Assembly (NCBI RefSeq): GCF_964204645.1 | Contig: NC_134033.1 | Coordinates: forward strand, 5,790,231-5,854,230 | Direction of reading: 5' to 3' | Source: Tubulanus polymorphus | Lineage: Eukaryota; Animalia; Nemertea | DNA: 64,000 bases | Shown: in pieces, positions 13,992 to 54,449 of the stretch | Position numbering within the stretch: position 1 is the stretch's first letter | How the letters are laid out: every line of letters starts with the position of its first letter | Made by a program: the position numbers and the translations under genes | Notes under the pieces: generated by a model | The model's input: only the letters and a program-made list of their open reading frames with translations | Told to the model about the DNA's origin: nothing | Database searches by the model: none

Positions 13992-16460
13992 CTACCGACA
14001 ACAACAACGACGGCAATGTCGTCTGCAAAGTTGGCGAAACTCGCGATTGAACTCGCGCGAGAAATTCGCGTAAAGAAACGGATTGGCGATACGCGCCAGG
14101 AACAGCAAACAGTAGAAAATCGTCTCCAGATCTCGAAGCGACGAACTGTAACGGCCGGCGGCAGCGTCGTCGCCGATGAACGAGTGGAAGGTCAAGGCCA
14201 CCGGTAGCGGTAGCCACACGACCATGAACGCGGCGACGACGATCAGCGACCTGACGGCCGTCGTGTAGACCATACCGAATTTCTTCTTTCGGACGCGATA
14301 TTCGTGGATCACGCTCGAATTTGCTGCTATATCACTACATCTCCTAGAACTTATCTGTTTCGTATTTATTTCGCAAGCAGGAATGTGTTTATCTTTGGTC
14401 GATTTGCCTTCCCTACGTGTAGGCTCGCCAGGAATATCGATCTTCGATACACCGATTTTTCTACAATCAGTTTTTCTTGGTACGCTAGTAGGTAGCGTAT
14501 CACCTAACGAATCACTGATAAAGTCGTGTTTATCTTTGATCGAATAATCTCGCCTACTTTGGTTGTTTTTGGTAGGCTCGCCAGGCAAATCGATTTCCAA
14601 TACACCGATTCGCCTATTCCCTGTTTTGCTAGGTACGCTACTAAGTGAAGTACCCAACGAATCAGTGATAAAGTCGTGATTATCTTTGAACAAATTATTT
14701 TGCCTAACCGTGCCGCTTTCGGTACTTTCAGTGTTACTAAGTGCGCCAGTACGTAAAGTCTTACCTAACGGGTCACTTTGGTTCGTCAAGTTTGAGTCTA
14801 GAGGTTGGTCCGTTTTGTTGGTGATAAGTCTCGATGACCGAAATTCGCCGGTTTCGGTAGCGAAAGCAGATTTTCGAGTTCTCGAAAACGGTTCTCGCGA
14901 ATAAGAAATTTGCAGCCGCTGATGCTGCTGACCGGTCTGATTCGAATCGGTAATCGAAGGTCGTCCCGGATCCGTCTGCCGACGCGAGCTGACGGCCACT
15001 CCCGCGTTAGGATCGTCAGATTGAGGGCACACGCGAGACGATGGCCAACCTAGAACCGTGAACCTTCTCGTCGGTGCGGTGACCTCGATAACGGACGAGC
15101 TGGATTCGTCGATCGAGCCGATACCCGTGTCCGAATGACATTTTCGACCGCCGAAATCGCCCAGAATTTCATCTTTTGCTCCGTTTTTGTGATGGAAATA
15201 TTCCGATACGACCGATATCGAGTTCGATCGTCTGCGGTTACGATTGACCGTCGCGTCCGTCGACGAATTATTGAGCGTCGACAATCGCCAGATATTCTGA
15301 TTTTTCACTTTGTAGTAGATGCTGGCGTAGGCGGCGGTAACGACGACTACCGATACGCCACCTAGTGCCGCCATTACGTAAAACGACAACAGCAAGCCTT
15401 CGTCGGATTTCGAGTTCAGACAGCGCAGGTAAAACGACGAAGTCGAATTCGGTACGCTAGTTTCTACGATTGCCAACAGGAGTGCGAACGTCCACGTCAT
15501 CGATGAAATGAGGACTATGGCGTTAGTCCGCATGAATTTTCTGCAATAAAAAAGAAATAACATTGTTTAATCATCTTTTAAATTAAGCTTTTTAAGAAGC
15601 TATTGGTTTCAGCCGCAGTTTGCTTGCACAGTCAGGCGTCTTCCATCCGGAACTAATAACTACAGCTCAACTTCGTCTTACGATTTAAGATTTTAGTCAG
15701 CTAATCAATTCAAGTCACGCGCCGTATAGGGCTAGCACAGATTAGTTCAACTAGGTATATTTCATTTGTCATTGCGATGCTTTCAATAATACGGCTAATT
15801 CGTCGATCGTTTAAAATCCATTTGCCTTGAAAGTTGAAGATAAAGATTTAATTGAACTGGAATAAAGATTTGATTGAACTGGATTGCTACTTCCCATTGA
15901 AATTTAATTCGTGAATAAACATTGTTATAAAAGTTATCATTGATGTCCAAGAAGTTAAAAAACCCATGTGCTACTGATAAACCTCACAAAGACTATCATT
16001 CTGTAAAAGCCCTTTGCATTTAATAGGTTGTCCTGGTCCCTGCCCCTGATGTGATATCCCATACTCACTCGGTTTGAGGGTGAACGACGACTAAGTATCG
16101 ATTCACCGCTATCGTATCCAAGGTCAATATAGTTGCTATGTTGCACGTGGTCGCCAGGAATCGCTGTATTTTACAAACGGTGGCACCGACCGTCCTGCCG
16201 CGATTATTGAACCCGATAGCCGCCACCATCAACGGAACCACGGCCAGGCAAACTAAAACATCCGAAACGCTTAGATTCGTAATCAAAGCGTTCGTCGGCG
16301 TTCTCAGCGAGCGCTTCCGGGCAAATAACGTCACAACGGCGGTACTTCCGGTCATGCCGACGACGAAAGTAACGGTCAATAGAGCGTAGCAGACGGCCGC
16401 CGCCCGCGTAGAAATGTGTTCATGGAAAGTTCCGTTAAGATTTCCGCTTTTGTTGTTCAT
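13992..16460 (-). CDS. Rhodopsin-class GPCR, 2 exons, 646 aa, very long third intracellular loop
   Basis: Exon 1 16460-16069 (donor GA|GTGAGT) joins exon 2 15540-13992 (acceptor TTGCAG|) in phase 2, giving HPQTEKFMR. Motifs: N-terminal N-glycosylation sites, LRTPTN..NLSVSD (TM2), TM3 Cys, AVNRY (DRY variant), VWLP (TM6), ANPFLY (NPxxY) and a Cys-rich tail. Confidence 0.92.
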
Positions 16461-16526
16461 CTTGTATATAGGAACCGAATACTCTAAGAGCCGCCACGTA
16501 TGATAAGCTTAACCTGTCTCTTTCTC

Positions 16527-28511: not shown

Positions 28512-29531
28512 ATGAAAGGGATCATGAACGCTACCGACATCGCCGCCACTCGCTGTCGATATTCGTCGAAGAGCGCCGTCTGGCTGGTCGTTCTCGCCTA
28601 CGTGTCGACGCCCGTCTGCGCGGTCGGCTTCGCGATGAACGCTCTCAGTTTCGTCGTGCTCAGGCGTCACCGGTCGCGTTCGAACGCTCTGCACCTGCTG
28701 CGACTGTTGGCCGTCGTCGACAACTGTTTCCTGGCGGTGTCCGTGTCGCTGGTGAACGCGCGGCGATTCTACGCGTATTTCAAGCACGCGTCCGAGTTCT
28801 TCTACCTGCCGGACGCGTTCGTCGGGCCGAGGTTCATCGTCTACCTGGCGCCGCCGCATCTGATCCTGCGCATGTTCCGCAACTGGTTGATCGTGTTGAT
28901 CAGCGTCGATCGAGCAATGCACGTCGTCGCGCCGTTGAAGTCGATCGTTCTGTGCAGTCGGAATCGCGTCAACACTGCGGTGGTAGCGATCGCCGCGTTG
29001 AGCGTCGCGATGCACGTGTTCAGATACTGTTGCCGACCGTTGACGATGGAGAAGCCCGACTGCTCGATCGACGACGGGATTCCGTTGCCGATGTTGCGGT
29101 TCCGTAACGATATACCGCGCGTGGTTGACGTGGTCACTTTAAGCGCGTTCGTCATCGTGATACCGTTCTGCCTCCTCGGCGCCACAAACACGATCCTATC
29201 CGTTCGTCTGTTCGCGGCGCGCGCTAAAAGACGGACGATGACCTCGGTCGCGGACGGCGCTAAAAAGACCGGCGGCGCCGATCAAGAACTGCAAGCGACC
29301 TTGCTGGCGTTCGGTATCGTCGTGACGTTTTTGGTTTGCGAAAGCCCGAACAGCGTGGAGCGCATCGTCGAGGCGGTTTTCTACGGCGGTAAGAAATTGC
29401 GCACGCATCCGATGATACAGGTGCTCATACAGTTGGATTCGTGCGTGAACTTCATCGTGTATTCGATGACCAGTCGTAAATTCCGCGTGGTGACCGGGCA
29501 GGTGGTGACTTGTTCGAAAACGCCGCAGTAG
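28512..29531 (+). CDS. Intronless rhodopsin-class GPCR, FMRFamide-receptor-like (339 aa)
   Basis: Seven hydrophobic segments; GFAMN (TM1), LAVVD (TM2), RNWLIVLISVDR (TM3), FLVCESP (TM6), DSCVNFIVY..SRKFR (TM7). Confidence 0.93.
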   Translation: MKGIMNATDIAATRCRYSSKSAVWLVVLAYVSTPVCAVGFAMNALSFVVLRRHRSRSNALHLLRLLAVVDNCFLAVSVSLVNARRFYAYFKHASEFFYLPDAFVGPRFIVYLAPPHLILRMFRNWLIVLISVDRAMHVVAPLKSIVLCSRNRVNTAVVAIAALSVAMHVFRYCCRPLTMEKPDCSIDDGIPLPMLRFRNDIPRVVDVVTLSAFVIVIPFCLLGATNTILSVRLFAARAKRRTMTSVADGAKKTGGADQELQATLLAFGIVVTFLVCESPNSVERIVEAVFYGGKKLRTHPMIQVLIQLDSCVNFIVYSMTSRKFRVVTGQVVTCSKTPQ

Positions 29532-31356: not shown

Positions 31357-31462
31357 TGAACGTTGCGTTTGATTACACTTTCCATGATTGTACTATGCAC
31401 ATATCTTGACTATTGTTAACTTCAAACCCTTCACAATAAATTGATCAGTAGAAAATACATGA

Positions 31463-33044
31463 TTACAAAACTTTCAGGTTTCTGAATCTAGACTGATCTT
31501 TATAGATGATTTCATCAGTGGCTTGTTGCCATTTATCGACTGCAATCAGATCTGTATTATATAAACGACATTTGACGATGTTATTTTGTCTTTTGATGAC
31601 AAACAAATCACAATCGCGATTCATAAGACATTTCGAAGCGCACAGAATTTCATACGCTGTTCTTGTGACCGGTTCGAGTGTGTTGATGTCAGGCGAAGGT
31701 AGATTCTTTGACGCGGTATCCATAACAAAATCTACAAAATATTCGCCAACATTGAAACTAACGGTAGATTTTTTTGCAAAAATAAAGTAGCTCTCCACCG
31801 GCAAATATATAAAAAACAAACAATGGAAATGTTAAATTCAACTTTTTCTTATATATTTTGAGTCTTAGGGATATATAGAATAAAGTATGAACACTTTCCA
31901 GCACTTCGAAGATTTTACCTAATCGAAAGCTTACCGAAATCTTTCTGAAAATACGGTACATTTTAGAATCAAAATTGCTTAAGTCGACTCTAAGCTGTAC
32001 CATATAGGCGCTTTTCCGAATTTAACCCGGCGCTCGCTACGGAGCCTGCGATTAGACCGAATATTCGGGTAAAACAGGCGGGGTTTACATACCTAACTCA
32101 TCTACACGTTCGCAGTACCATTCCACATAGTCATACTCTGTCCATACTTTGAACAAATCAGGCCGAGTGAATCTATTTTCGGGCAGAATATAACAGAATT
32201 TTGATGGTCGGTGATAGTGAGACGATCTACAGAGAAACTCTGTATGCTTCCCGCATGTATTCATACACTGTCTTAGAGTAGGAGCCGTGACGCCATTTAT
32301 ATCTGGTCCCAATCCCATCCCTACGAAAATGTTCCATCGCAGCCTTTGCCGGGGTCCACATGTGTCTAGAAAGAAATCATTGGAAAACATTTTTCGATTT
32401 CGAAGAGGCAGTAAAATAAATCGTGGTGAAATCTGACGACACACGTGATCAATATTGTCATCTAACTTAAAAGTAAATTCATAACTTTCTTATCAAGCGG
32501 CGCGCTAAATCAATATATTACATGTTATGAATATAAAGATGCATTTCTATTGAAATACTTAAAACGTAGGAAGTTCCTTCGAAGGGCCATTGAACGTTTG
32601 AATTTCACAATAAGATCTATGTCATGTTCAGGCTCTTGTTCCGATATCTTAACTCGACTGACATCTTGTGTATTTCAGATGGTAGTCTAAAGACGGCGGA
32701 ATAGGAGATAGTAAATAAGTTGTTGATATTAGTTGTCAAATGATAGTTCCTCTCGGACCAGGTCTGTATAACTGCGATGGATAAATAGATCTGTAGACTA
32801 TACTGGAACCAGTTCCAAAGTTGCGATTAAAGATTTGACTCAGAGTTAACTCATCGTAAGTGAACTAATTCTAACTCAGAGTTAACTCTATAACTCATGA
32901 GTGTCGAACTGGATCCTGTCTTAGATTTAAACTTACTTTAAAATTGACCGCACATAATCAATTAGTAAGTCTCTTACCGATCGCTTGTTCGGCTCCACTG
33001 AGAAAACTGGAGTTTAAAATCAAAATCACGCACAAAACCAACAT
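31463..33044 (-). CDS. Secreted double PAN/apple-domain protein, copy 1 (202 aa)
   Basis: Exons 33044-32978 (MLVLCVILILNSSFLSGAEQAI, signal peptide), 32365-32093 (TLRQCMNTC..FLCRSSHY..FCYI..YDYVEWYC) and 31731-31463 (ILCASKCLMNRDCDLF..KCRLY); all junctions phase 1 GT-AG. Confidence 0.82.
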
Positions 33045-33550
33045 TATGACAATCTCTATGCGTGGTATCCGATCACAAGTTTTATTTCGACTGATTTGTA
33101 GCCTGTTAGTGTTTTATTGATAAAACCGACCAGAGCAATATCATTAATGAAATCGTTGATGCTGTACGATTAGCAGATTCGTCACGCCTCAAAACGCTGA
33201 GTGTTTTTAGCAATTACTTTCGTAATAAACATCACAGCGACCGGCGCAGCCTAGAGACCATCGACACGGTCCATGTGATCAATGGTTTTTTAAACCAATC
33301 AACAATACCAACAGATGAAAATTGAAATAAAAAAATGCGTGAATAACCAAATTTGTAATGTCGATCATGGAAGAATAATTTTTCGAAATTTGGGAATTCA
33401 ATGACGACAATGATAGTAATGTTGTGTCTTATTTAGCGCTAAATCAAGGGAAGCTGCTCAGAGCGCTTTACTTTCCAGTATCTTTACTATATCTTGACTA
33501 TTGTTAACTTCAAACCCTTCACAATAAATTGATCAGTAGAAAATACATGA

Positions 33551-35134
33551 TTACAAAACTTTCAGGTTTCTGAATCTAGACTGATCTTTATAGATGATTT
33601 CATCAGTGGCTTGTTGCCATTTATCGACTGCAATCAGATCTGTATTATATAAACGACATTTGACGATGTTATTTTGTCTTTTGATGACAAACAAATCACA
33701 ATCGCGATTCATAAGACATTTCGAAGCGCACAGAATTTCATACGCTGTTCTTGTGACCGGTTCGAGTGTGTTGATGTCAGGCGAAGGTAGATTCTTTGAC
33801 GCGGTATCCATAACAAAATCTACAAAATATTCGCCAACATTGAAACTAACGGTAGATTTTTTTGCAAAAATAAAGTAGCTCTCCACCGGCAAATATATAA
33901 AAAACAAACAATGGAAATGTTAAATTCAACTTTTTCTTATATATTTTGAGTCTTAGGGATATATAGAATAAAGTATGAACACTTTCCAGCACTTCGAAGA
34001 TTTTACCTAATCGAAAGCTTACCGAAATCTTTCTGAAAATACGGTACATTTTAGAATCAAAATTGCTTAAGTCGACTCTAAGCTGTACCATATAGGCGCT
34101 TTTCCGAATTTAACCCGGCGCTCGCTACGGAGCCTGCGATTAGACCGAATATTCGGGTAAAACAGGCGGGGTTTACATACCTAACTCATCTACACGTTCG
34201 CAGTACCATTCCACATAGTCATACTCTGTCCATACTTTGAACAAATCAGGCCGAGTGAATCTATTTTCGGGCAGAATATAACAGAATTTTGATGGTCGGT
34301 GATAGTGAGACGATCTACAGAGAAACTCTGTATGCTTCCCGCATGTATTCATACACTGTCTTAGAGTAGGAGCCGTGACGCCATTTATATCTGGTCCCAA
34401 TCCCATCCCTACGAAAATGTTCCATCGCAGCCTTTGCCGGGGTCCACATGTGTCTAGAAAGAAATCATTGGAAAACATTTTTCGATTTCGAAGAGGCAGT
34501 AAAATAAATCGTGGTGAAATCTGACGACACACGTGATCAATATTGTCATCTAACTTAAAAGTAAATTCATAACTTTCTTATCAAGCGGCGCGCTAAATCA
34601 ATATATTACATGTTATGAATATAAAGATGCATTTCTATTGAAATACTTAAAACGTAGGAAGTTCCTTCGAAGGGCCATTGAACGTTTGAATTTCACAATA
34701 AGATCTATGTCATGTTCAGGCTCTTGTTCCGATATCTTAACTCGACTGACATCTTGTGTATTTCAGATGGTAGTCTAAAGACGGCGGAATAGGAGATAGT
34801 AAATAAGTTGTTGATATTAGTTGTCAAATGATAGTTCCTCTCGGACCAGGTCTGTATAACTGCGATGGATAAATAGATCTGTAGACTATACTGGAACCAG
34901 TTCCAAAGTTGCGATTAAAGATTTGACTCAGAGTTAACTCATCGTAAGTGAACTAATTCTAACTCAGAGAGTTAACTCTATAACTCATGAGTGTCGAACT
35001 GGATCCTGTATTAGATTTAAACTTACTTTAAAATTGACCGCACATAATCAATTAGTAAGTCTCTTACCGATCGCTTGTTCGGCTCCACTGAGAAAACTGG
35101 AGTTTAAAATCAAAATCACGCACAAAACCAACAT
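33551..35134 (-). CDS. Secreted double PAN/apple-domain protein, copy 2
   Basis: Exons 35134-35068, 34453-34181 and 33819-33551; coding sequence appears identical to copy 1. Confidence 0.8.
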
Positions 35135-36179
35135 TATGACAATCTCTATGCGTGGTATCCGATCACAAGTTTTATTTCGACTGATTTGTAGCCTGTTAGT
35201 GTTTTATTGATAAAACCGACCAGAGCAATATCATTAATGAAATCGTTGATGCTGTACGATTAGCAGATTCGTCACGCCTCAAAACGCTGAGTGTTTTTAG
35301 CAATTACTTTCGTAATAAACATCACAGCGACCGGCGCAGCCTAGAGATCATCGACACGGTCCATGTGATGAATGGTTTTTTAAACCAATCAACAATACCA
35401 ACAGATGAAAATTGAAATAAAAAATGCGTGAATAACCAAATTTGTAATGTCGATCATGGAAGAATAATTTTTCGAAATTTGGGAATTCAATGACGACAAT
35501 GATAATAATGTTGTGTCTTATTTAGCGTTAAATCAAGGGAAGCTGCTCAGAGCGCTTTACTTTCCAGTATCTTTATTTCCAGCCTGTAAACTCTGACCTT
35601 TTATCGGTCATCTCTCCCTGGAGATGTAACATCCGAGCAACTAGTCACCAGTTTCGAGGATCTTATTCTTAGCATTGGTCAATTTCACTATACACGCGCG
35701 TTAATGTCCAAACGCAGTATGCGATTTGGTGAGTTGAATCAAAAAAGTGTTTTGTCAATTAAAAAGATATATTTTCAAACTAAATCGATTGAGGCAAAAG
35801 ATATATCAAATAACTCAATAAGGGGTCAACGAAGTGGCCTCGGGGAATATTTACCAGATTGATAGCCTGTCGGGGATCCCACTCAGTCGTCTAACCTATT
35901 CTTCCAGTCGGAATGAAAACATGTAGAACTAATAGAATTGTTGTCTTTTTTCCAGATCAGTCGTTCCTCACCGACCCGATCGATACCAACGACGTGTGGC
36001 TGACTAAACTAACACACTTTCGACGAAAGACCTTTCGAAATTCATGACGCATCAAACAGAGGTTAGTGGTGAGTAGATGTGTTCTTATTTGATACTGGAT
36101 CTAACTGACTATACAATGTATATGTATCGAGTCAAATTGAAAATTGATGGCGGTCTTCGTGTTTTCTTCAGATTTCTTC

Positions 36180-43370: not shown

Positions 43371-45650
43371 ATTGATTGATTGATTGATTTTATTTTCATA
43401 GAACATAGTTTAATATAATAATTTATCTTACAAAATACCACAATGAACTATGAAGGACTCGTCCAGAGCCTGAAGGCTGTGGCTCTGAACAGAGTGGACG
43501 AGCCCCGGTGACTATGAAATGGATGATGACAATGATACAAATGTCAATATTATAAGGCTTATCTATGGTAAGCTCTTTTCAAAACAATATACAACATACA
43601 ATGGTAATACTACAATAACTATTATATAACATAAACATACCATGATAGAATATTTTAGGGGGACGGGATGAATATTCAATATCTATTGTTGAGCTGTTTT
43701 TTGTAGAGCCTGGTGAATGAATGAATTGATGGAGATTTTCTGATTGTGTTATCGATTGTTTGCCAAATGACAGGAACTTTGTTAAAAAACGATTGATTGA
43801 ACATATTCGTTTTGTGACGGACAGATTGTGGATAATTTCTTGATCTTGTGTTATGTGTGTGGTTTACTTGGTTATGTTGGAACAATGCTTTAGCAACGGA
43901 CTTTTTCCGCGTTGCCAATTTTACAAAACTGAAAATTCAAACGATTGAATCTATGTGTTAATACCAGTTTATTTTACGTCTTAATCAGTTGGAAAGCAGG
44001 CACAGAGTGTTATGATAATTAGTTACAGTATACACAGAATAGAATCGAATATTATACTACTTGATTACTCATACTTCATCAGATCGTAACTGAGATTGTC
44101 CTACAATGACTTTTCTTTAACTACATACTTAATACAAAGGCCTATTTCTACAAACAAATAATCATTAGCCGTCATTTTAGATTAAATACCTAATCTATAA
44201 AAATTGACTCTCAGTACCAAATGTACGTGTTACATAAAGGTCTGATTTCTCAGCTAAGCCTAGGTACACATTTATGCCAAAACATATATAAGATTTAACT
44301 ATGAAAAATGGATGTAACTCACCTGAAAATTCAAACGATTGAATTTATGTGTTAATACCAGTTTATTTTACGTCTTAATCAGTTGGAAAGCAGGCACAGA
44401 GTGATCAAATCTGTGCTGTCAAAAACCAAGTTGATTAAGACACTCCCATCAAGAAATTAGTGACCAAAACTTCTAGCGATTGGTTCATCCAAATCTTAAT
44501 GACCTATTAAGACACTAATTACCTGATGAGAGCTAAACTAGTTGCGAGGGCAGGTGAGTTGAGAGTTGTTTATATTGCTATTACATCACTTATTCAAAAA
44601 TAGTGCCAGTTCGCTAGGTAGACAAAATACTCACTAAACAAGACAGCCTACTTGAGCTGCCAAAACGGTATCCGGGTAAAAGTGACAAAGACTAAGGGTT
44701 AGATCCATTAATGGACATAGGAAAAATCTACAAATATGTTTTCTTAGCTACAAATGACCTGGCAAAATATTGATCACAACATTTAAACATAAAAACACAA
44801 TCCGCAGTTCCAGATAAAAATACTCCTTGCTAAACTGCTCTTATCGGGGTGGGCAATTTTCCTTCGAAGTATTTGTAGCCAATTTTTGCGAGGTCTAAAT
44901 TCATTATATCTTCAAATTTTAGGATATCATATTTTCTAAATAAGTGTGATGCGGGGGCATTATAGCGGCTTTTATCGATATATCTGATTGCCCTTTTCTG
45001 CAATTTGAAAATGGTGTCTATTTGCTTTTTTGAGAGAAGAGTGCCCCACGATGTCACTGCATAAGATAAATGTGTATGTATATAGCCATAATACAGCAGT
45101 TTCTTACTCCAAGCAGGTATAAATTTTTTTATTCTTCTTAATAAATACAAGTTTCTATTGATTTTTTAACAGGTTTGTTTGAATTGTTGTTCACAAGATA
45201 GATTTTCATCAATAAGTACTCCTAAAAATTTACACTGTTTTACTGATTTTATTTTCTCAGTGCCAAATATGAGATCTATATCTGTTTGGAAACTTTTACT
45301 TCTGGGCCTAAAAATCATGCAATTAGTTTTCTTGAAATTGACTGTAATTTGTTAGCATGGAACCAATCGATCAGTGTAGATAGGTCATCTTTCAGAAGAT
45401 CTAAAATAGTGTTAAGGTTCTTTCCGGTAATATATGTGCTAGTGTCGTCTGCGAATAATATACTTTTACAGGATTTTAAAACTTGATGGGCATCTTTAAC
45501 GAGAAAAAGCAGTGGTCCGAGTATAGAGCCTTGAGGAATTCCGTATTCGACTTTAGCTAGATTTGATTTGATTCCGTTGACCTTTACATACATTCTCCTT
45601 TCACTGAGGTAACTTTTCAACCATTGCAATGGAATTCCTCTTATTGTATA
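43371..45650 (-). mobile_element. 5'-truncated CR1/L2-type LINE (RT fragment) interrupted by an insertion
   Basis: WLKSYLSERRMYV, YGIPQGSILGPLLFL, ILFADDT, LQKRAIRYI; frame ..PTPIRA resumes as LFQHNQVNHTHNTR after the 43889-44835 insert; (ATCA)n tail at 43371-43390. Confidence 0.9.
43889..44835. mobile_element. Non-autonomous TIR-like insertion nested in the LINE
   Basis: Ends TTTAGCAA and TTGCTAAA(C), flanked by TGC on both sides; internal ~80-bp direct repeat at 43929 and 44323. Confidence 0.6.
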
Positions 45651-45949
45651 CTTGATGCTCTTGAAATCTACCTGTAATCAGGATTTGAAGAATTAAGCAT
45701 TGTGCAAAGGTAAGAATTTTTTGCTAAGTGCAAACACAAGTTCCTGGCATTATTTTTGAGCTATTCAATTGAGAATTGTTATACCAAAATGTATTTGCGA
45801 TCTAATGAGGAGTTGGCGTACTATTCCGCACCGCGGCGCTGCTATGCAACTCGGTTTCTAATGAATTTAAAAGTCATATTGAGGAAAGATATTTTGAGGG
45901 TTCTGGTTTAACATTGAATGAAATTATATTTTTAGATTTAAATATTTTT

Positions 45950-48070
45950 AATACAGAAAAGGAATAAAGCATCAAAAAGTAATACAATGTTTACAAATTA
46001 TGTAACTTTACAACAGAAAAGGATATTAAAGCATCATCTTATATAAAATTACCACTTACAACAAAAGCAGTAATAAATGTTCAAAATGAAGATAATAAAT
46101 GTTTTCTATGGTCAATTATTAGTTGTTTACACCCAACTCAGGAAAATGTTTGTAGAATAACAGATTATCGGAAATATGAAACATTATATAAAATTGATCA
46201 ATATCCAGTAACTATAAAGATGATTCCTAAAATAGAAAAAAGTTGATAATTTAAAAATAAATGTATTCGAATTAATGCAATTACAAAAGGTGAGACAAAA
46301 GGTGAAAATATTAAAGATTATACATTAGGAGCCTTACATTTTACAGAATATTATGATGATGAAAATGTAATAGATTTATAATATTACGAAAAGATGAAAA
46401 TAAACATTATATGTGGTTAAAACAAATAGATTTATTCTTTAGAACAGAAAATGATTTCAACAGTCATAACAAAATATATTTATGTAGCAAATGTTTATCT
46501 AAATTTAGAACTGAAAATGCGTTACTAAAGCATAAAGAATCATGTGATAATAAAGATTTTTGCAAATTAATAATGCCAACAGAAAAAGATTATAAATTGA
46601 AATTTACTAATTATAAATTTAGAAATATAGTGCCATTTGTAATTTATGGGGATTTTGAATCGTTGAATAAAGAATTAACTGGTCAAGATAGAAACGAAAT
46701 ATATAACAAAAAGCAATTTTTAAAATCAATGGACAAAGGAAATGAATTAAGACATAATTCAAGACCCACCAATCATAAATACAATTTAAAAAGTTCATCG
46801 AAGAGCTGCAGCTTATTATAAATACAATTATATTGTTCATAATAGAATGTAAAAATTTTATCTAAAACTCTAAAACAAGGAATGAAATTAAAGAAATTAC
46901 ATATATATATTGAATTTAATCAATCGAAGTCGTTAGAAAAATATATAGATTTCAATACTCAACAGAGAATGATATCTAAAACAGATTTTGAAAAAGATTT
47001 TTTTAAATTAATGAATAAAAGTTTTTATGGAAAAACATGTGAAAATATTAGAAATAGAAATGATATTGAATTATTAGATAATTCTGTACGATTGAGACAT
47101 TTACAATCAAGTCCTAGACATTTAGAAAATAAAAGATTTGAAGATTATTTAACAGCAATAAAATAAAAAGAACGTCAATGAAATTTAATGAACCAATATT
47201 TATAGGTTCGACTGTTTTAGAAATATCAAAATTGTTAATGTATGATTTTTATTATAATGTTTTACAACCACTTAATTGGGAAAAGCATATTGAAATATTA
47301 CATTTTGATTCTGTAACAGCTGACACCACAATATTATTAAAATATAATAATCAAATGTTAACTAGTAGAATTTTAGAAATAATACCTAATCATAATAAAC
47401 TTTATATTACATATGGTGAAAAGGAATTAATACAAATAAATGGATTAATATATGTTTGAGCAAAAAATGGATGGAAAACATTAATTTAAGAATATTATTA
47501 GACGTAAAACGAATAAGACGATTTATAGAGTTAGAACTAAATTAGAGTTTGTAGATGTTACTGAAGATCACAATTTAATTAAACGAAATGGTGATGAAAT
47601 AAAACCAACTGATATGAAAATTGGAGATGAATTATTACATAAAAGATTTTATCCAAGAATGAATCATATGTAATTTGATGAAATAATAGATAATATTTAT
47701 AACATAGAACCAGAAACATTAGAATAAAAAGAATATTTTATCAAAGGATTTTTTTATGGGTGATGGTTCAGCAGGTGTCAATAATTATGTTGGTGGCAAT
47801 AAATATTGTTGGTATTTATGCAATCAAGATTTGAAATTATTTGAAAGAATAAAAAAATACTGTGAAGTTTTTCCAAATAAAGTTTTTAAACTCATTGATA
47901 TTATGAAATCAGCAGCAGTTTATAGAATACTTGTGAATAATCCTAAAGATTTTGCATTTAAATATAATGATGAATTCTATAACTATGCACTAGTCAAAAG
48001 TAATACTTCAACCAAAGAAAAGATAGTGCCAGATTATGTATTAAATGCAAAATATAATTTAAGGATTTAA
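45950..48070 (+). mobile_element. polB: Decayed Polinton/Maverick-type (endogenous virus-like) protein-primed DNA polymerase B with intein
   Basis: Very AT-rich. Fragments QNEDNKCFLWSIISCLHP, CSKCL..LLKHKESC, PFVIYGDFESL (ExoI), EKDFFKLMNKSFYGKTCENIRNR (motif B), PIFIGSTVLEISKLLMYDFYY and ILHFD (start of motif C); stops, frameshifts and a large internal deletion near 46830. Confidence 0.88.
47310..48070 (+). other. Intein with LAGLIDADG homing endonuclease (degraded, C-terminus lost)
   Basis: Block A SVTADTTILLK directly after HFD; block B FVDVTEDHNL..IKPTDMKIGDELLH (47551-47640); LAGLIDADG-type YFIKGFF(frameshift)MGDGS at ~47735-47770; KEKIVPDYVLNA. Confidence 0.82.
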
Positions 48071-48074
48071 GGAT

Positions 48075-48295
48075 TTAATTCAAGTTTATTAAAATACTGT
48101 TTGATGTACCCACGACCTTGGTTAACAAAAACCTGAGTAAAACCTATATCGTTTAACTAACCTTGTACAGAAGATATCCATTTGGAACTATATATAGTAG
48201 TAGTTTATTCTTTATCAAAGTGTGTACTATACTTGTATGACAGATAATCAAAATTACAAATCTTAACAAAATAATTTAATAAAAAATTACATGCT
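48075..48295 (-). mobile_element. LINE ORF2 3' fragment
   Basis: Minus-strand KWISSVQG*LNDIGFTQVFVNQG resembles the LINE post-RT region; it abuts and truncates the intein. Confidence 0.45.
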
Positions 48296-49029
48296 GGAAA
48301 AACAGAAATATCAAGTTGATGGGGTAGCAATATTTGCTCGGTATCTATGTTAAGCGCATCATCAAAGTGAGATCAAATTAACTGTATAGCGAAGCTTGAT
48401 TGGGATTAATATATCGAATAAAATTGTACTTTCGCCTGAATTGATAGTGCTAGTTGTCTTGTCAACTTCAATGGCTCGGGGGTTCGATCCCTCCTGGAGT
48501 TTTTGAACTCTTGAAATTTGCGAATCACTTGTTCCCGCCTTGGTGATTCAGTTGGGAAAACAGTTTCACAGTTATCCGTCAGGTTTTAATCAAGAATGAA
48601 TATGAGTCAAATCTGATCTGAGAACAGACTGCATTGGGAGTGTGTTTGATAATAAACTTCCAGATATTTAACTACATTTTATAAGATATTTCAACATTTG
48701 CCATGAATTCTTGTACAAAGAATATTTACATTCAATTTAGTAACATTTATATTGTACACAATAGCAAACATTCACAAAATCTCATTACAGTGTTAGATTT
48801 CTGAGAATCATTTTCAATTCGCTGTTGACAATAAACCTTACAAAGGAATTGTTGCTGTAACAAAGACTTCGTGATAACATTTGCTCCGTGAGAAAGAAGC
48901 ACCAAACTAACGGTACCTTAATATTGGACTTTAATTGATTTTCCAATATGAGAGAAGACACGGTCAGTTGCAGTACATACGGTACCCTCTCAGACAGTCA
49001 GTATTACTCTCATTTCATCTGCACGGATC

Positions 49030-49998
49030 ATGAATTCAACTCGGGTGCAAATTGGTCGAACATACAGCAGTAACATCGCTCTCATGTCTGTGGTGAACAG
49101 GTCTGGAATTTACCGTAATGTATCATTGGTCATTCTGCCGGTCGTGTTCCTGTTTGCAGCGTTTGGGAATTCAGCTACTTTCCTAATAATGATAAGTAGC
49201 AGATTCCGCGGTTTATCTTACGCTAACTATCTTATCGTTTTGTCTCTCAGCGACTCTATGTACTGTATCAGTTTAACACTGCTGCCTGTTTTGCAGTTTG
49301 TTCTCTTGCACGTTAAAGATGGTCCTATATTCATCATAGATTCACTGATAAGTTGTCAAATCTATGAATTTCTAATGCAACTTGCCGGCTGCAATTGTTC
49401 GTGGTTAATAGTAGCAATAACTCTGGAACGTGTGGCTGTTGTTCTCTTCCCGTTCACATCTCGTTTGATATGTACACCGAGATTCGCTAGGTTTGCTATA
49501 TTGATAATTACTGCAGTGAATATACTGATTCTATATCTCACACCTGCTATGACGATACATTTTACCGACTGGTTTTTTGGATGTTACTATGGCTTGTTTG
49601 ACCAGATAAAATATTTTGCGGTATTTGTCATCTACGTTTACAATATACCATTAACGTTAATTATCACCTCAAATACTGTTATAATAGTTAAGTTATTCAG
49701 AGGTTCGAAAATCGTTTCGTCTGATCAGAAAACTACAAAATCAAAACGTACAACAATAATGCTTGTAACAGTTTCACTCGCATTTGCAATATTTACACTT
49801 CCTAACACTATTACTACATTTTTACCAATCTCACCGGAGCAGGAAGATTTCCTATATGACATATTTGAACTGTTTGAAATGTGTAACTATGTGATAAATT
49901 TTTACATATATCTTTTACTGGGACGAGAAATTCGTGAATTTTTTTGTACGAAACTATGCTGTAGAAATCCACTCAAAAATAACCATTGGACTTCGTAA
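49030..49998 (+). CDS. Intronless rhodopsin-class GPCR, FMRFamide-receptor-like (322 aa)
   Basis: FGN (TM1), YLIVLSLSD, TM3 Cys, SWLIVAITLER..V.FP, FAIFTLP, NYVINFYIY. Confidence 0.93.
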   Translation: MNSTRVQIGRTYSSNIALMSVVNRSGIYRNVSLVILPVVFLFAAFGNSATFLIMISSRFRGLSYANYLIVLSLSDSMYCISLTLLPVLQFVLLHVKDGPIFIIDSLISCQIYEFLMQLAGCNCSWLIVAITLERVAVVLFPFTSRLICTPRFARFAILIITAVNILILYLTPAMTIHFTDWFFGCYYGLFDQIKYFAVFVIYVYNIPLTLIITSNTVIIVKLFRGSKIVSSDQKTTKSKRTTIMLVTVSLAFAIFTLPNTITTFLPISPEQEDFLYDIFELFEMCNYVINFYIYLLLGREIREFFCTKLCCRNPLKNNHWTS

Positions 49999-52650: not shown

Positions 52651-53694
52651 TCACGCTGTTTTTGTACTTCTAGAACACACAATATCTGCGGCGTAGCTAC
52701 GGAAACGTTTGTTTACAACGAGATACAAAATCACGTTCACTAGAGAATCAATTTTGCTCCCGATTTCGGCGCCATATTTCAATATATCGCGTTGCATTGT
52801 TCCGTGTAACCAAAGAAAATCGTAGTTCAACAATGCGAACATATTCGGGAATTCACAAAGTAAATGGGCTGTTACTATTGATATTGTGGTCACTAACGCC
52901 ACTTTATCGTTGTAACTGATTGCCTGCTGTGAACTCCTTGCCAACAAAGAGCGCCGTTTCTTTTGAAAATCTAATACGTTTGAACATAAAACGGCGTTAC
53001 CGATCAATAAGAGTAAGATGGGGGTGGCCGTACCGAAATAAATAACGATGGGCCTGGTATATTTGCCAATACGGAACGACCAAATATTGCTGTAATTGTA
53101 AAATGTCTCCGACTTGAAATATTGGCATACTTTGTTTTTCGTCTGATGGACCCTATACAGGAAATTTGGCACAGAAACGATTACGTTGAGACAGACGACC
53201 GAGACGATCACATTATTCACCGATCGTTTGGTCGTCCATCGTTTTACCTTGAAAATAAACAGAACGGTTAGCACTCTCTCGAACGTGATAGAGACTGTTA
53301 TCCAATTACGCGTCGTGTATAACGCGTGAACCAGACCCATCAAATAAATGTCGATTTGTGGAAGTAACAGGCTTTGGCGGATATAGACAAATCGTCGGCC
53401 ATATTGGAAATATCTGTACAGTACACCGACGCTGTATTCAGGGATGCTTATCAGTGAAAATAGTGCATCAAGTATTGTCAGAGCTTTCAGTAAATAATAT
53501 GTGGGCTGAAACGAAAATCTTCTCAGCACGACAAAACAGAAAACATTAAGAATTGTAGCGATGAATGAGATAGGTGTCGCTACGAGTGTGTTAATATAAA
53601 ACCGTGACCACGAGATGTAATGTGGTTGACATGTTTTATTGAAATCATAAACTAAACGTTCGTCTCGTAGCGGCCATATTCGTGGATAAGACAT
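52651..53694 (-). CDS. Intronless rhodopsin-class GPCR, FMRFamide-receptor-like (347 aa)
   Basis: LNVFCFVVLRR, LKALTILD, RNWITVSITFER, LLCEFP, DSLVNVILY..NKRFR; same subfamily as 28512-29531. Confidence 0.93.
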   Translation of the reverse strand: MSYPRIWPLRDERLVYDFNKTCQPHYISWSRFYINTLVATPISFIATILNVFCFVVLRRFSFQPTYYLLKALTILDALFSLISIPEYSVGVLYRYFQYGRRFVYIRQSLLLPQIDIYLMGLVHALYTTRNWITVSITFERVLTVLFIFKVKRWTTKRSVNNVIVSVVCLNVIVSVPNFLYRVHQTKNKVCQYFKSETFYNYSNIWSFRIGKYTRPIVIYFGTATPILLLLIGNAVLCSNVLDFQKKRRSLLARSSQQAISYNDKVALVTTISIVTAHLLCEFPNMFALLNYDFLWLHGTMQRDILKYGAEIGSKIDSLVNVILYLVVNKRFRSYAADIVCSRSTKTA

Positions 53695-54449
53695 CTTTAT
53701 GAAGCTGCCGTCATGTCGCTACCTTCACCATGGCTGTGTCGGTTTGGTGCCGTCTGTCACTGCCTCGTGCCACTGTTGCTATGTCGTTGATATCTATCGC
53801 TACCTCCTGTGGCAGTTTGACGCTATCAGTCATTCTGTCTCCAGGTCTAGAATCAATTTGTCACTTTACCGATTCCTAATCAAAAACTTCAGATATATGT
53901 GATTTAATGTTGCCTGCTAATGGAAGAAGTAATTTTTTTGTTGGTATCGATTTTAAAATGGAGGTGAGAACATTATAAGATCCTGAAATATACATTCAGA
54001 TGTGAAGCGAGTTGCAAAGCTATATTGGACGAGGGCAAGGTTAGGTAATAGAACTTGGAGGAAATCTACTTGGGCCAGTTGTCCTGGAAGTCTATAAAGT
54101 AGTTACTGTTTTTGTCGTAAACTGAAGGTTACTTTTAAGCTGAGTGGCTCCAAGTTGAAGGTCACACAGGAGTATGTAGCAAAAGGATGCATTCTGAACA
54201 ATGTAAAAAACCTTCGAATAAATACGTAAATTGAGTCAAATCAAAAGTTTTAAGGTGAGGATAGGAAGTTTCGAAATAACCAATTCACTTCATTCATTAT
54301 TGGTTTATTACAGCCGCATCCATACTATAAGCAGGGAAGTGTGATGAGTGTCACACTTCCCTGCTATAAGCGAGTTTTAGACCGTTCTAAACGGGTCCGT
54401 GCCCGGTGCAGGACCGATTTAGAACGGACTTAATCAGAGCGCGCGACTC

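Follow-up and report, generated by a model that had tools for sequence, protein, structure and literature searches.

The closest described counterparts of the insertion reported here are the pol-c inteins of Mimivirus, other Mimiviridae and Phycodnaviridae, which, in the accessible parts of the sources, occupy the same site in motif C of PolB (YGD|TDS), share Ser1, the terminal Asn, Thr+1 and a LAGLIDADG endonuclease, and are likewise about 350 amino acids long (PMC549080, PMC5784728). The available portion of one survey lists viral inteins from Iridoviridae, Marseilleviridae, Phycodnaviridae and Mimiviridae (PMC5784728), and the eukaryotic inteins covered in the accessible sections of this and other surveys come from fungi, algae, protists and large DNA viruses, not from animal genomes or Polintons (PMC5784728, PMC10710043, PMC7765530). 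The polymerase that hosts the present intein belongs to the same family as the protein-primed PolBs (pPolBs) of Polintons/Mavericks (adintoviruses), in which nucleases have been described (accessible sections of PMC10748475, PMC8502044 and PMC11161782). The available text of PMC11161782 goes no further than to suggest 'intein invasions' as the origin of HNH/VSR inserts in pPolBs. Within the literature outside subscription journals and Repbase, we found no paper that describes an intein in an animal genome or in the polymerase of a Polinton, Maverick or adintovirus. The word 'intein' is absent from the main text of PMC10748475, PMC8502044 and 10.64898/2026.10.13.758929, and 'intein', 'LAGLIDADG' and 'Hint' are absent from the text, figure images aside, of one supplementary file each of PMC10748475, PMC8502044 and PMC11161782. 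Inteins of Polintons appear not to have been reported before.

The stretch of DNA analyzed here (64 kb; hereafter the window) contains a decayed polymerase gene interrupted by an intein. With a probability of about 0.8, we regard it as a dead fragment of a multi-copy element of the Polinton/adintovirus type in which motif C of the pPolB is split by a class 1 LAGLIDADG intein belonging to the pol-c family of giant viruses; intact copies are predicted to splice, which would rebuild D-T-D-S, and to spread, likely by cutting intein-free copies. The sequence, the intact relatives, the fold and the empty alleles show that the insert is a canonical pol-c intein, residing in a type of host that is new for such inteins.

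The fragment starts with the N-terminal part of a Polinton-type pPolB (45863..46360, plus strand), which contains stops and in tblastn corresponds to residues 197-334 of P0002, an intact relative described below. It continues with a zinc-finger-like stretch and the first exonuclease motif (46363..46695, plus strand; residues 344-434 of P0002), with 40% identity over 97 aa and weak zinc-finger matches. Positions 46696..46819 form the junction across a large internal deletion, residues 435-1022 of P0002 (about 590 residues) being unmatched in tblastn. The region from motif B to the first Asp of motif C, which is the end of the N-extein, lies at 46820..47309 on the plus strand, contains breaks and is 54% identical to P0002 over 153 aa. 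The peptide ILHFD ends at 47309, and the intein Ser begins at 47310, directly after the first Asp of motif C. The N-terminal Hint region of the intein (47310..47670, plus strand) was recognized by tblastn and by an intein profile and matches the PolB intein 9hth in the PDB (E = 0.008); it contains one stop and one frame change. Its landmarks are Ser1 at 47310, the motif-NX position at 47503-47505, where the window copy has Arg as against His in the intact relatives, and the TxxH of block B at 47560-47571. The linker and the N-terminal half of the LAGLIDADG endonuclease follow (47671..48065, plus strand; tblastn and intein profile), with two stops and one frame change, and the first LAGLIDADG motif (about 47737-47767) is broken by a frame change. 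Homology stops at about 48065, upstream of the second LAGLIDADG motif, and the C-terminal splicing blocks (block F and the terminal Asn) are missing, 47310-48065 representing the first 70% of the intein. Residues 197-434 and 1023-1434 of P0002 are present in the window by tblastn, and the alignment is collinear over the extein-intein junction, in successive segments of 105 aa (57% identity), 90 aa (70%) and 115 aa (50%). With its stops, frame changes, internal deletion and 3' truncation, the window copy is dead, incapable of splicing as well as of replication.

A profile made from 104 giant-virus-type pol-c inteins, with zero Polinton sequences among them, matches the window at 47482-47868 (84.3 bits) and 47678-48067 (60.2 bits), with nothing further above 8 bits in its six frames; 50 codon shuffles of the stretch reached at most 3.5 bits with this profile. 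Pfam and NCBIfam searches of seven broken pieces from the window gave no intein family above threshold (TIGR01445 weakly, E = 0.07), because these pieces are too short and broken, and a 62-aa Hint piece used as query found nothing in a homologue search or a scan of viral contigs. The peptides quoted in the original prediction are all found at their places in a three-frame translation. Its identification of an intein from block A (Ser1), block B (TxxH) and a LAGLIDADG motif is borne out by these residues, by the Hint and LAGLIDADG fold and by the profile match. The pol-c site D|TDS, which it had also named, is confirmed by fuller copies, in which PolB resumes at TDS or TDA. It correctly described the copy as degraded and lacking the C-terminal end; the HN terminus that it expected there needs correction, since Ser-Asn or Lys-Asn is found at this place in the closest intact relatives.

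The GC content of the window is mostly about 0.33-0.49 and falls to 0.23 at 46-48 kb; the window contains no N bases. Its coding content, according to Pfam, consists of rhodopsin-family GPCRs, PAN domains and remnants of LINE reverse transcriptases, which suggests the genome of an animal, probably an invertebrate, and this content (GPCR, PAN, LINE) is the sole tie of the intein to an animal. On one side, the pPolB piece adjoins a decayed LINE reverse-transcriptase fragment on the minus strand (44830..45850, extent judged by eye; PF00078, E = 6e-7 for 45318-45677). Against the cut end of the intein lies what appears, by eye from a motif and not from a library match, to be a second LINE-like remnant (48075-48330, minus strand). 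Further downstream is a host rhodopsin-family GPCR ORF (48952..49998, plus strand; 7tm_1, E = 1e-13) with a partial zero-difference match to contigs of organism A, in whose reads it is one of a large family. GPCR ORFs are clustered in the window (13992-16508, 28512-29531, 48952-49998 and 52651-53718), two of the four scanned passing the Pfam cut-off, and 31401-35267 is a near-exact tandem duplication of about 2.09 kb with one PAN-domain ORF per unit. Integrase, ATPase and capsid genes had no tblastn match in the 64-kb window. The 25 longest inverted repeats of the window include no terminal inverted repeats close to the fragment, and no target-site duplication was seen there; the element ends are not expected here because the window piece is internal.

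Intact relatives were recovered with a 115-aa endonuclease piece as query, which found two proteins among 125 candidates. One of them, P0002 (JGI), is an intact protein-primed PolB of 1693 aa that matches PF03175 (E = 5e-17), PF14890 and, above the cut-off, PF14528; its insert of 354 aa has the form D|S...N|TDS. The other, P0003 (NCBI, 242 aa), is 74% identical to the window over 55 aa and overlaps the end of the window copy, beyond which it includes the second LAGLIDADG motif, blocks F and G, a Lys-Asn end and TDA before continuing as polymerase. The P0002 intein as query retrieved 1238 proteins; the 120 best listed comprise 114 with PF00136, five pPolBs (P0002, P0006, P0014, P0019 and P0020) and one topoisomerase-like protein. 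Among those with PF00136 is a named Mimivirus PolB (P0120), and the remainder are presumably of giant-virus type. The inteins of the five intact pPolBs are 337-354 aa long and 40-76% identical to one another, and the polymerases resume at TDS. All five retain Ser1, the motif-NX His (by pattern match), TxxH, both LAGLIDADG Asp residues, the block-F Asp, the terminal Asn and Thr+1; P0003 likewise has the expected residues in block F, at the terminal Asn and at +1. Among 160 loci in viral and metagenome contigs, the extein was Mimivirus-like PolB in 147, could not be matched in 12 and was a pPolB in one (L083), a sixth pPolB whose intein has a frame break and whose contig carries only the polymerase. 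In L083 as in the five intact polymerases, the first Asp of motif C immediately precedes the insert and the Thr immediately follows it.

The residue before the terminal Asn is His in P0006, P0019, P0020 and L083, Ser in P0002, and Lys in P0003, P0014 and the Mimivirus protein P0120. A penultimate His is usual, not universal, in class 1 inteins, and it is absent from 83 of the 104 giant-virus-type inteins. The residue before the motif-C Asp is other than Gly in six of the seven intein-bearing pPolBs seen. The flank of P0002 is YGD, the giant-virus form, which occurs in 0 of 13 intein-free pPolBs from viral contigs; it is possibly a remnant of the donor, yet one intein-free member of the P0006 family also has Gly there. 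Related inteins were also seen in a Topoisomerase-II-like protein (P0016; PF00204, PF02518), which contains two, and two residues further along motif C in L146 and L155, and five polymerases (P0004, P0005, P0008, P0010 and P0011) have a tandem pair of related inteins at motif C.

TIGR01445 matches all five intact pPolB inteins, P0002 above the cut-off, and the Pfam family Intein_splicing gives 30.2 and 27.6 bits (cut-off 35.8). By sequence, their matches in the PDB are PI-PkoII, NEQ068 and 9hth. An AlphaFold model of the P0002 intein, based on 57 sequences, has a pLDDT of 92.6 and a pTM of 0.91, and its Foldseek match to 7qsu has E = 1.7e-17 and TM = 0.66. The best fold matches in the PDB are the TliVMA intein, PI-PkoII, PI-PfuI, PI-SceI and I-DmoI, and the best viral ones are giant-virus PolB inteins; the modeled fold thus matches the Hint plus LAGLIDADG architecture of solved endonuclease-bearing inteins. 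Judging from these residues and this fold, splicing would proceed by oxyester chemistry through Ser1 and Thr+1, with the motif-NX His, the block-B His, the block-F Asp and the terminal Asn, and polymerase activity would depend on it.

The host assignment also draws on intein-free relatives. PF03175 matches P0014 (E = 9e-32) as it does P0002, and among 14 pPolB relatives from viral contigs, motif C reads as an uninterrupted DTDS in 13 and is unreadable in one. Three intein-free loci carry further element genes, namely rve integrase, A32 ATPase, double-jelly-roll capsid and a PLA2-like gene (L170), ATPase and capsid (L172), or ATPase and integrase (L167), and the polymerase class is assigned to Polintons/adintoviruses because of these genes. 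According to the available part of PMC8502044, the PLA2-like gene is linked to Alpha-class virion modules. P0133 and P0019 also contain an Endonuclease VII-like domain. A scan of viral contigs with the whole of P0002 found nothing.

Phylogenetic analysis of the inteins used FastTree on 111 rows, 11 hits with unparsed boundaries being left out, and IQ-TREE on 50 rows, 42 thinned from the 104 giant-virus-type inteins plus eight from pPolBs. The eight pPolB inteins form one clade (FastTree 1.0; SH-aLRT 100) that is nested, under a midpoint root, among giant-virus-type pol-c inteins; the taxa of these trees are the best matches of a Polinton query, towards which the set is biased. The intact pPolB inteins are 37-42% identical to that of Mimivirus (P0120) over about 370 columns, and the 170 residues before and 150 residues after the site do not align with giant-virus PolB. 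In an extein tree of 19 rows, which omits L164 and L175 because of stops and P0014 as unalignable, the six intein-bearing polymerases group in one clade with P0133, which is intein-free, and the branching of this clade does not conflict with that of the intein tree. The intein of P0014 is 39-46% identical to window-class inteins (46% to P0002), and its flanks match theirs with E = 3.5e-4 at best. These comparisons suggest that the intein was captured once, long ago, from the PolB of a giant virus, probably during co-infection of a cell, with subsequent inheritance within one pPolB clade; the presence of the same motif-C intein in P0014, a member of another, unalignable pPolB class, likely reflects one jump between polymerase classes. 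The giant virus as donor and the direction of transfer are inferred from these midpoint-rooted trees.

The kinship with giant-virus inteins and the Polinton-type host, both anticipated in the original prediction, are thus upheld, the former by the nesting in the trees and the latter by the integrase, ATPase and capsid genes of intein-free relatives. Acquisition of a giant-virus-type intein by an animal-associated element also stands, except that it is not particular to the element of this animal, since the whole polymerase clade shares it. The expected incongruence of intein and extein trees is seen at depth (giant virus versus Polinton, and P0014 versus the rest), and within the clade the trees broadly agree. 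The intact copies and intein-free alleles that it proposed to look for were found, as five intact polymerases and as empty alleles in the P0006 family, respectively.

Donors other than giant viruses were considered as well. For phages, tblastn gave two weak matches, of which L001, a piece of phage-type PolB with a distant intein, is not a close relative. Prokaryotic genomes yielded 28 loci: two full-length inteins (L177 and L178, 35-37% identity) with Mimivirus-like PolB exteins, and otherwise mostly partial matches or archaeal ones of 22-33%. Given these exteins and the weak remainder, a prokaryotic donor is not favored, and L177 and L178, labeled Bacteroides/Bacteroidales, are probably mis-binned giant-virus DNA.

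Homing usually leaves co-conversion of the flanks and escape variants of the target site. Of the 136 members of the P0006 cluster, 40 were read; the 15 that were listed lie on separate ENA contigs, 57 kb to 1 Mb in length. Seven of the 15 bear the intein, six are intein-free with an exact gap of 346 aa, and two stop short of the site; their N-exteins are 95-99% identical to that of P0006. All 10 fixed differences between filled and empty copies fall within -7 to +44 residues of the site, a clustering as tight as which arose in 0 of 200,000 random placements, a statistic that overstates independence because the copies are related. In the intein-free copies, the variability of the 20 residues around the site is 0.173, as compared to at most 0.133 in 1051 distant windows, and the intein-bearing copies are invariant at the site. 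This is the pattern that homing would leave, and the intein likely moves from copy to copy of the element, some 50 flanking codons being co-converted and altered targets being selected for in intein-free copies; these allele pairs are protein-level data, in which either allele may have received the tract.

The presence of the element in organism A was examined in contigs from three runs (X1-X3) of two samples in one study, the runs listed including none of RNA. Run contigs match the unique flanks of the fragment exactly (in X1, without a mismatch along 382-587 bases), and many accumulate between 45736 and 48122, most of them with 80-99% identity. The extein-intein junction is bridged by 5 of the 24 contigs shown, with at least 31 letters on each side and 10-21 differences each. 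The junction thus exists in several independent copies and cannot be an artifact of assembly, and the element with the intein forms a repeat family in this organism. None of the 93 contigs over 47190-47430 reaches 99% identity to this copy, no contig shown joins the fragment to its flanks, leaving integration at this exact locus unconfirmed by reads, and no intein-free allele was seen at the site in the 17 shown of 32 loose-end rows from organism A. Compared with the unique flank bin 48340-48556, X1 shows a far greater summed contig depth across the element than do X2 and X3 (for bin 47472-47688, 27253/31.5 in X1, 336/17.9 in X2 and 182/5.4 in X3), values that do not represent copy number; the depth in X1 hints weakly that sample S1 contains many more copies, or free ones.

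Other explanations fit parts of these data. That the fragment is foreign to the animal chromosome, through a chimeric join or through assembly of symbiont, protist or free-virus DNA into the contig, would agree with its low GC content, with the lack of a near-identical copy among the contigs at the junction and with the lack of a shown contig across the flank boundaries. We consider it very improbable, given that the window is free of N, that the decayed piece sits between LINE remnants as genomic relics do, and that the same three runs contain both the unique flanks and many diverged copies of the element; moreover, Logan contigs lose rare variants of repeats. Hardly credible is an insert consisting of a non-splicing Hint-like or free-standing endonuclease domain, comparable to the HNH/VSR domains of Polinton polymerases. 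Inserted nucleases are indeed known in Polinton pPolBs (available part of PMC10748475), and the Intein_splicing scores are below the cut-off, but a passive domain could not split a catalytic motif, and the TIGR01445 matches in five of five inteins, the complete splice-junction residues and the exact presence/absence alleles all argue against it.

A real intein could also be an old passenger that is inherited vertically and whose endonuclease no longer homes, the empty P0006 alleles having arisen by ordinary recombination with an intein-free sister lineage. Such recombination would leave the same local tract, and protein data do not reveal which allele received it; in addition, the intein and extein trees agree within the clade, and the six window-class intein-bearing polymerases all fall, together with P0133, in one extein clade. 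We nevertheless regard an idle passenger as unlikely, as both acidic LAGLIDADG residues persist in all five intact inteins despite identities of only 40-76%, the intein crossed into the unalignable class of P0014, and the intein-free alleles are unusually variable right at the site. The preferred reading of an intein that continued to home, of which the window holds a since decayed copy, extends to a bolder one, to which we assign slightly less than even odds: the intein may act as a gene drive in a transposon family, homing among integrated Polinton copies of one nuclear genome, animals included, converting empty copies, selecting resistant sites and having jumped between two unalignable polymerase classes.

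The intein in Polintons would record gene flow from giant viruses to these elements and a rare crossing of an intein between polymerase families, and it lends direct support to the suggestion, in the available text of PMC11161782, that inteins invaded pPolBs. Natural filled and empty alleles, at 95-99% identity, make it possible to test whether the intein homes among the members of a multi-copy element family. The finding bears on why animals lack inteins, as a Polinton would bring one into the animal nucleus, from where it may have spread across animals; if the gene-drive reading is true, these inteins would be without precedent as true self-splicing inteins that are inherited in animal genomes and work in animal cells. 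It also provides mesophilic inteins with Ser1 and Thr+1 that could be useful for protein engineering.

Several known systems resemble the present one in part. Cysteine-less PolB inteins (PolB16 OarG and Neq Pol; PMC10189870, accessible part) have the same chemistry of Ser1, Ser/Thr+1 and motif-NX His; in contrast to those split mini-inteins, the present ones are contiguous and contain an endonuclease. Inteins are known in animal viruses from iridoviruses (Chilo iridescent virus, cited in PMC549080, and Iridoviridae in PMC5784728, in their available sections), which are free large viruses and not integrated Polintons; the Chilo intein ends in Gln. The accessible part of PMC10710043 describes viral-type PolB inteins in endogenized giant-virus polymerases, located on nuclear scaffolds from a labyrinthulid and two algae, as well as inteins in the nuclear genome of Anaeramoeba; the role of viruses as intein vectors is a shared feature. 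In those cases the hosts are non-animal and the polymerases of giant-virus type, whereas here the intein resides in a repeated integrating element with filled and empty alleles. The giant-virus pol-c inteins share even the Lys-Asn end, found in several of their members as in P0003 and P0014, but the host of the present intein is a protein-primed PolB that cannot be aligned with theirs, and the element is small, multi-copy and located in an animal contig. Finally, the inserts described in Polinton polymerases, in the sections of those papers available, are HNH/VSR domains with no splicing domain, whereas the present insert, which divides motif C, is a complete intein with both Hint and LAGLIDADG parts.
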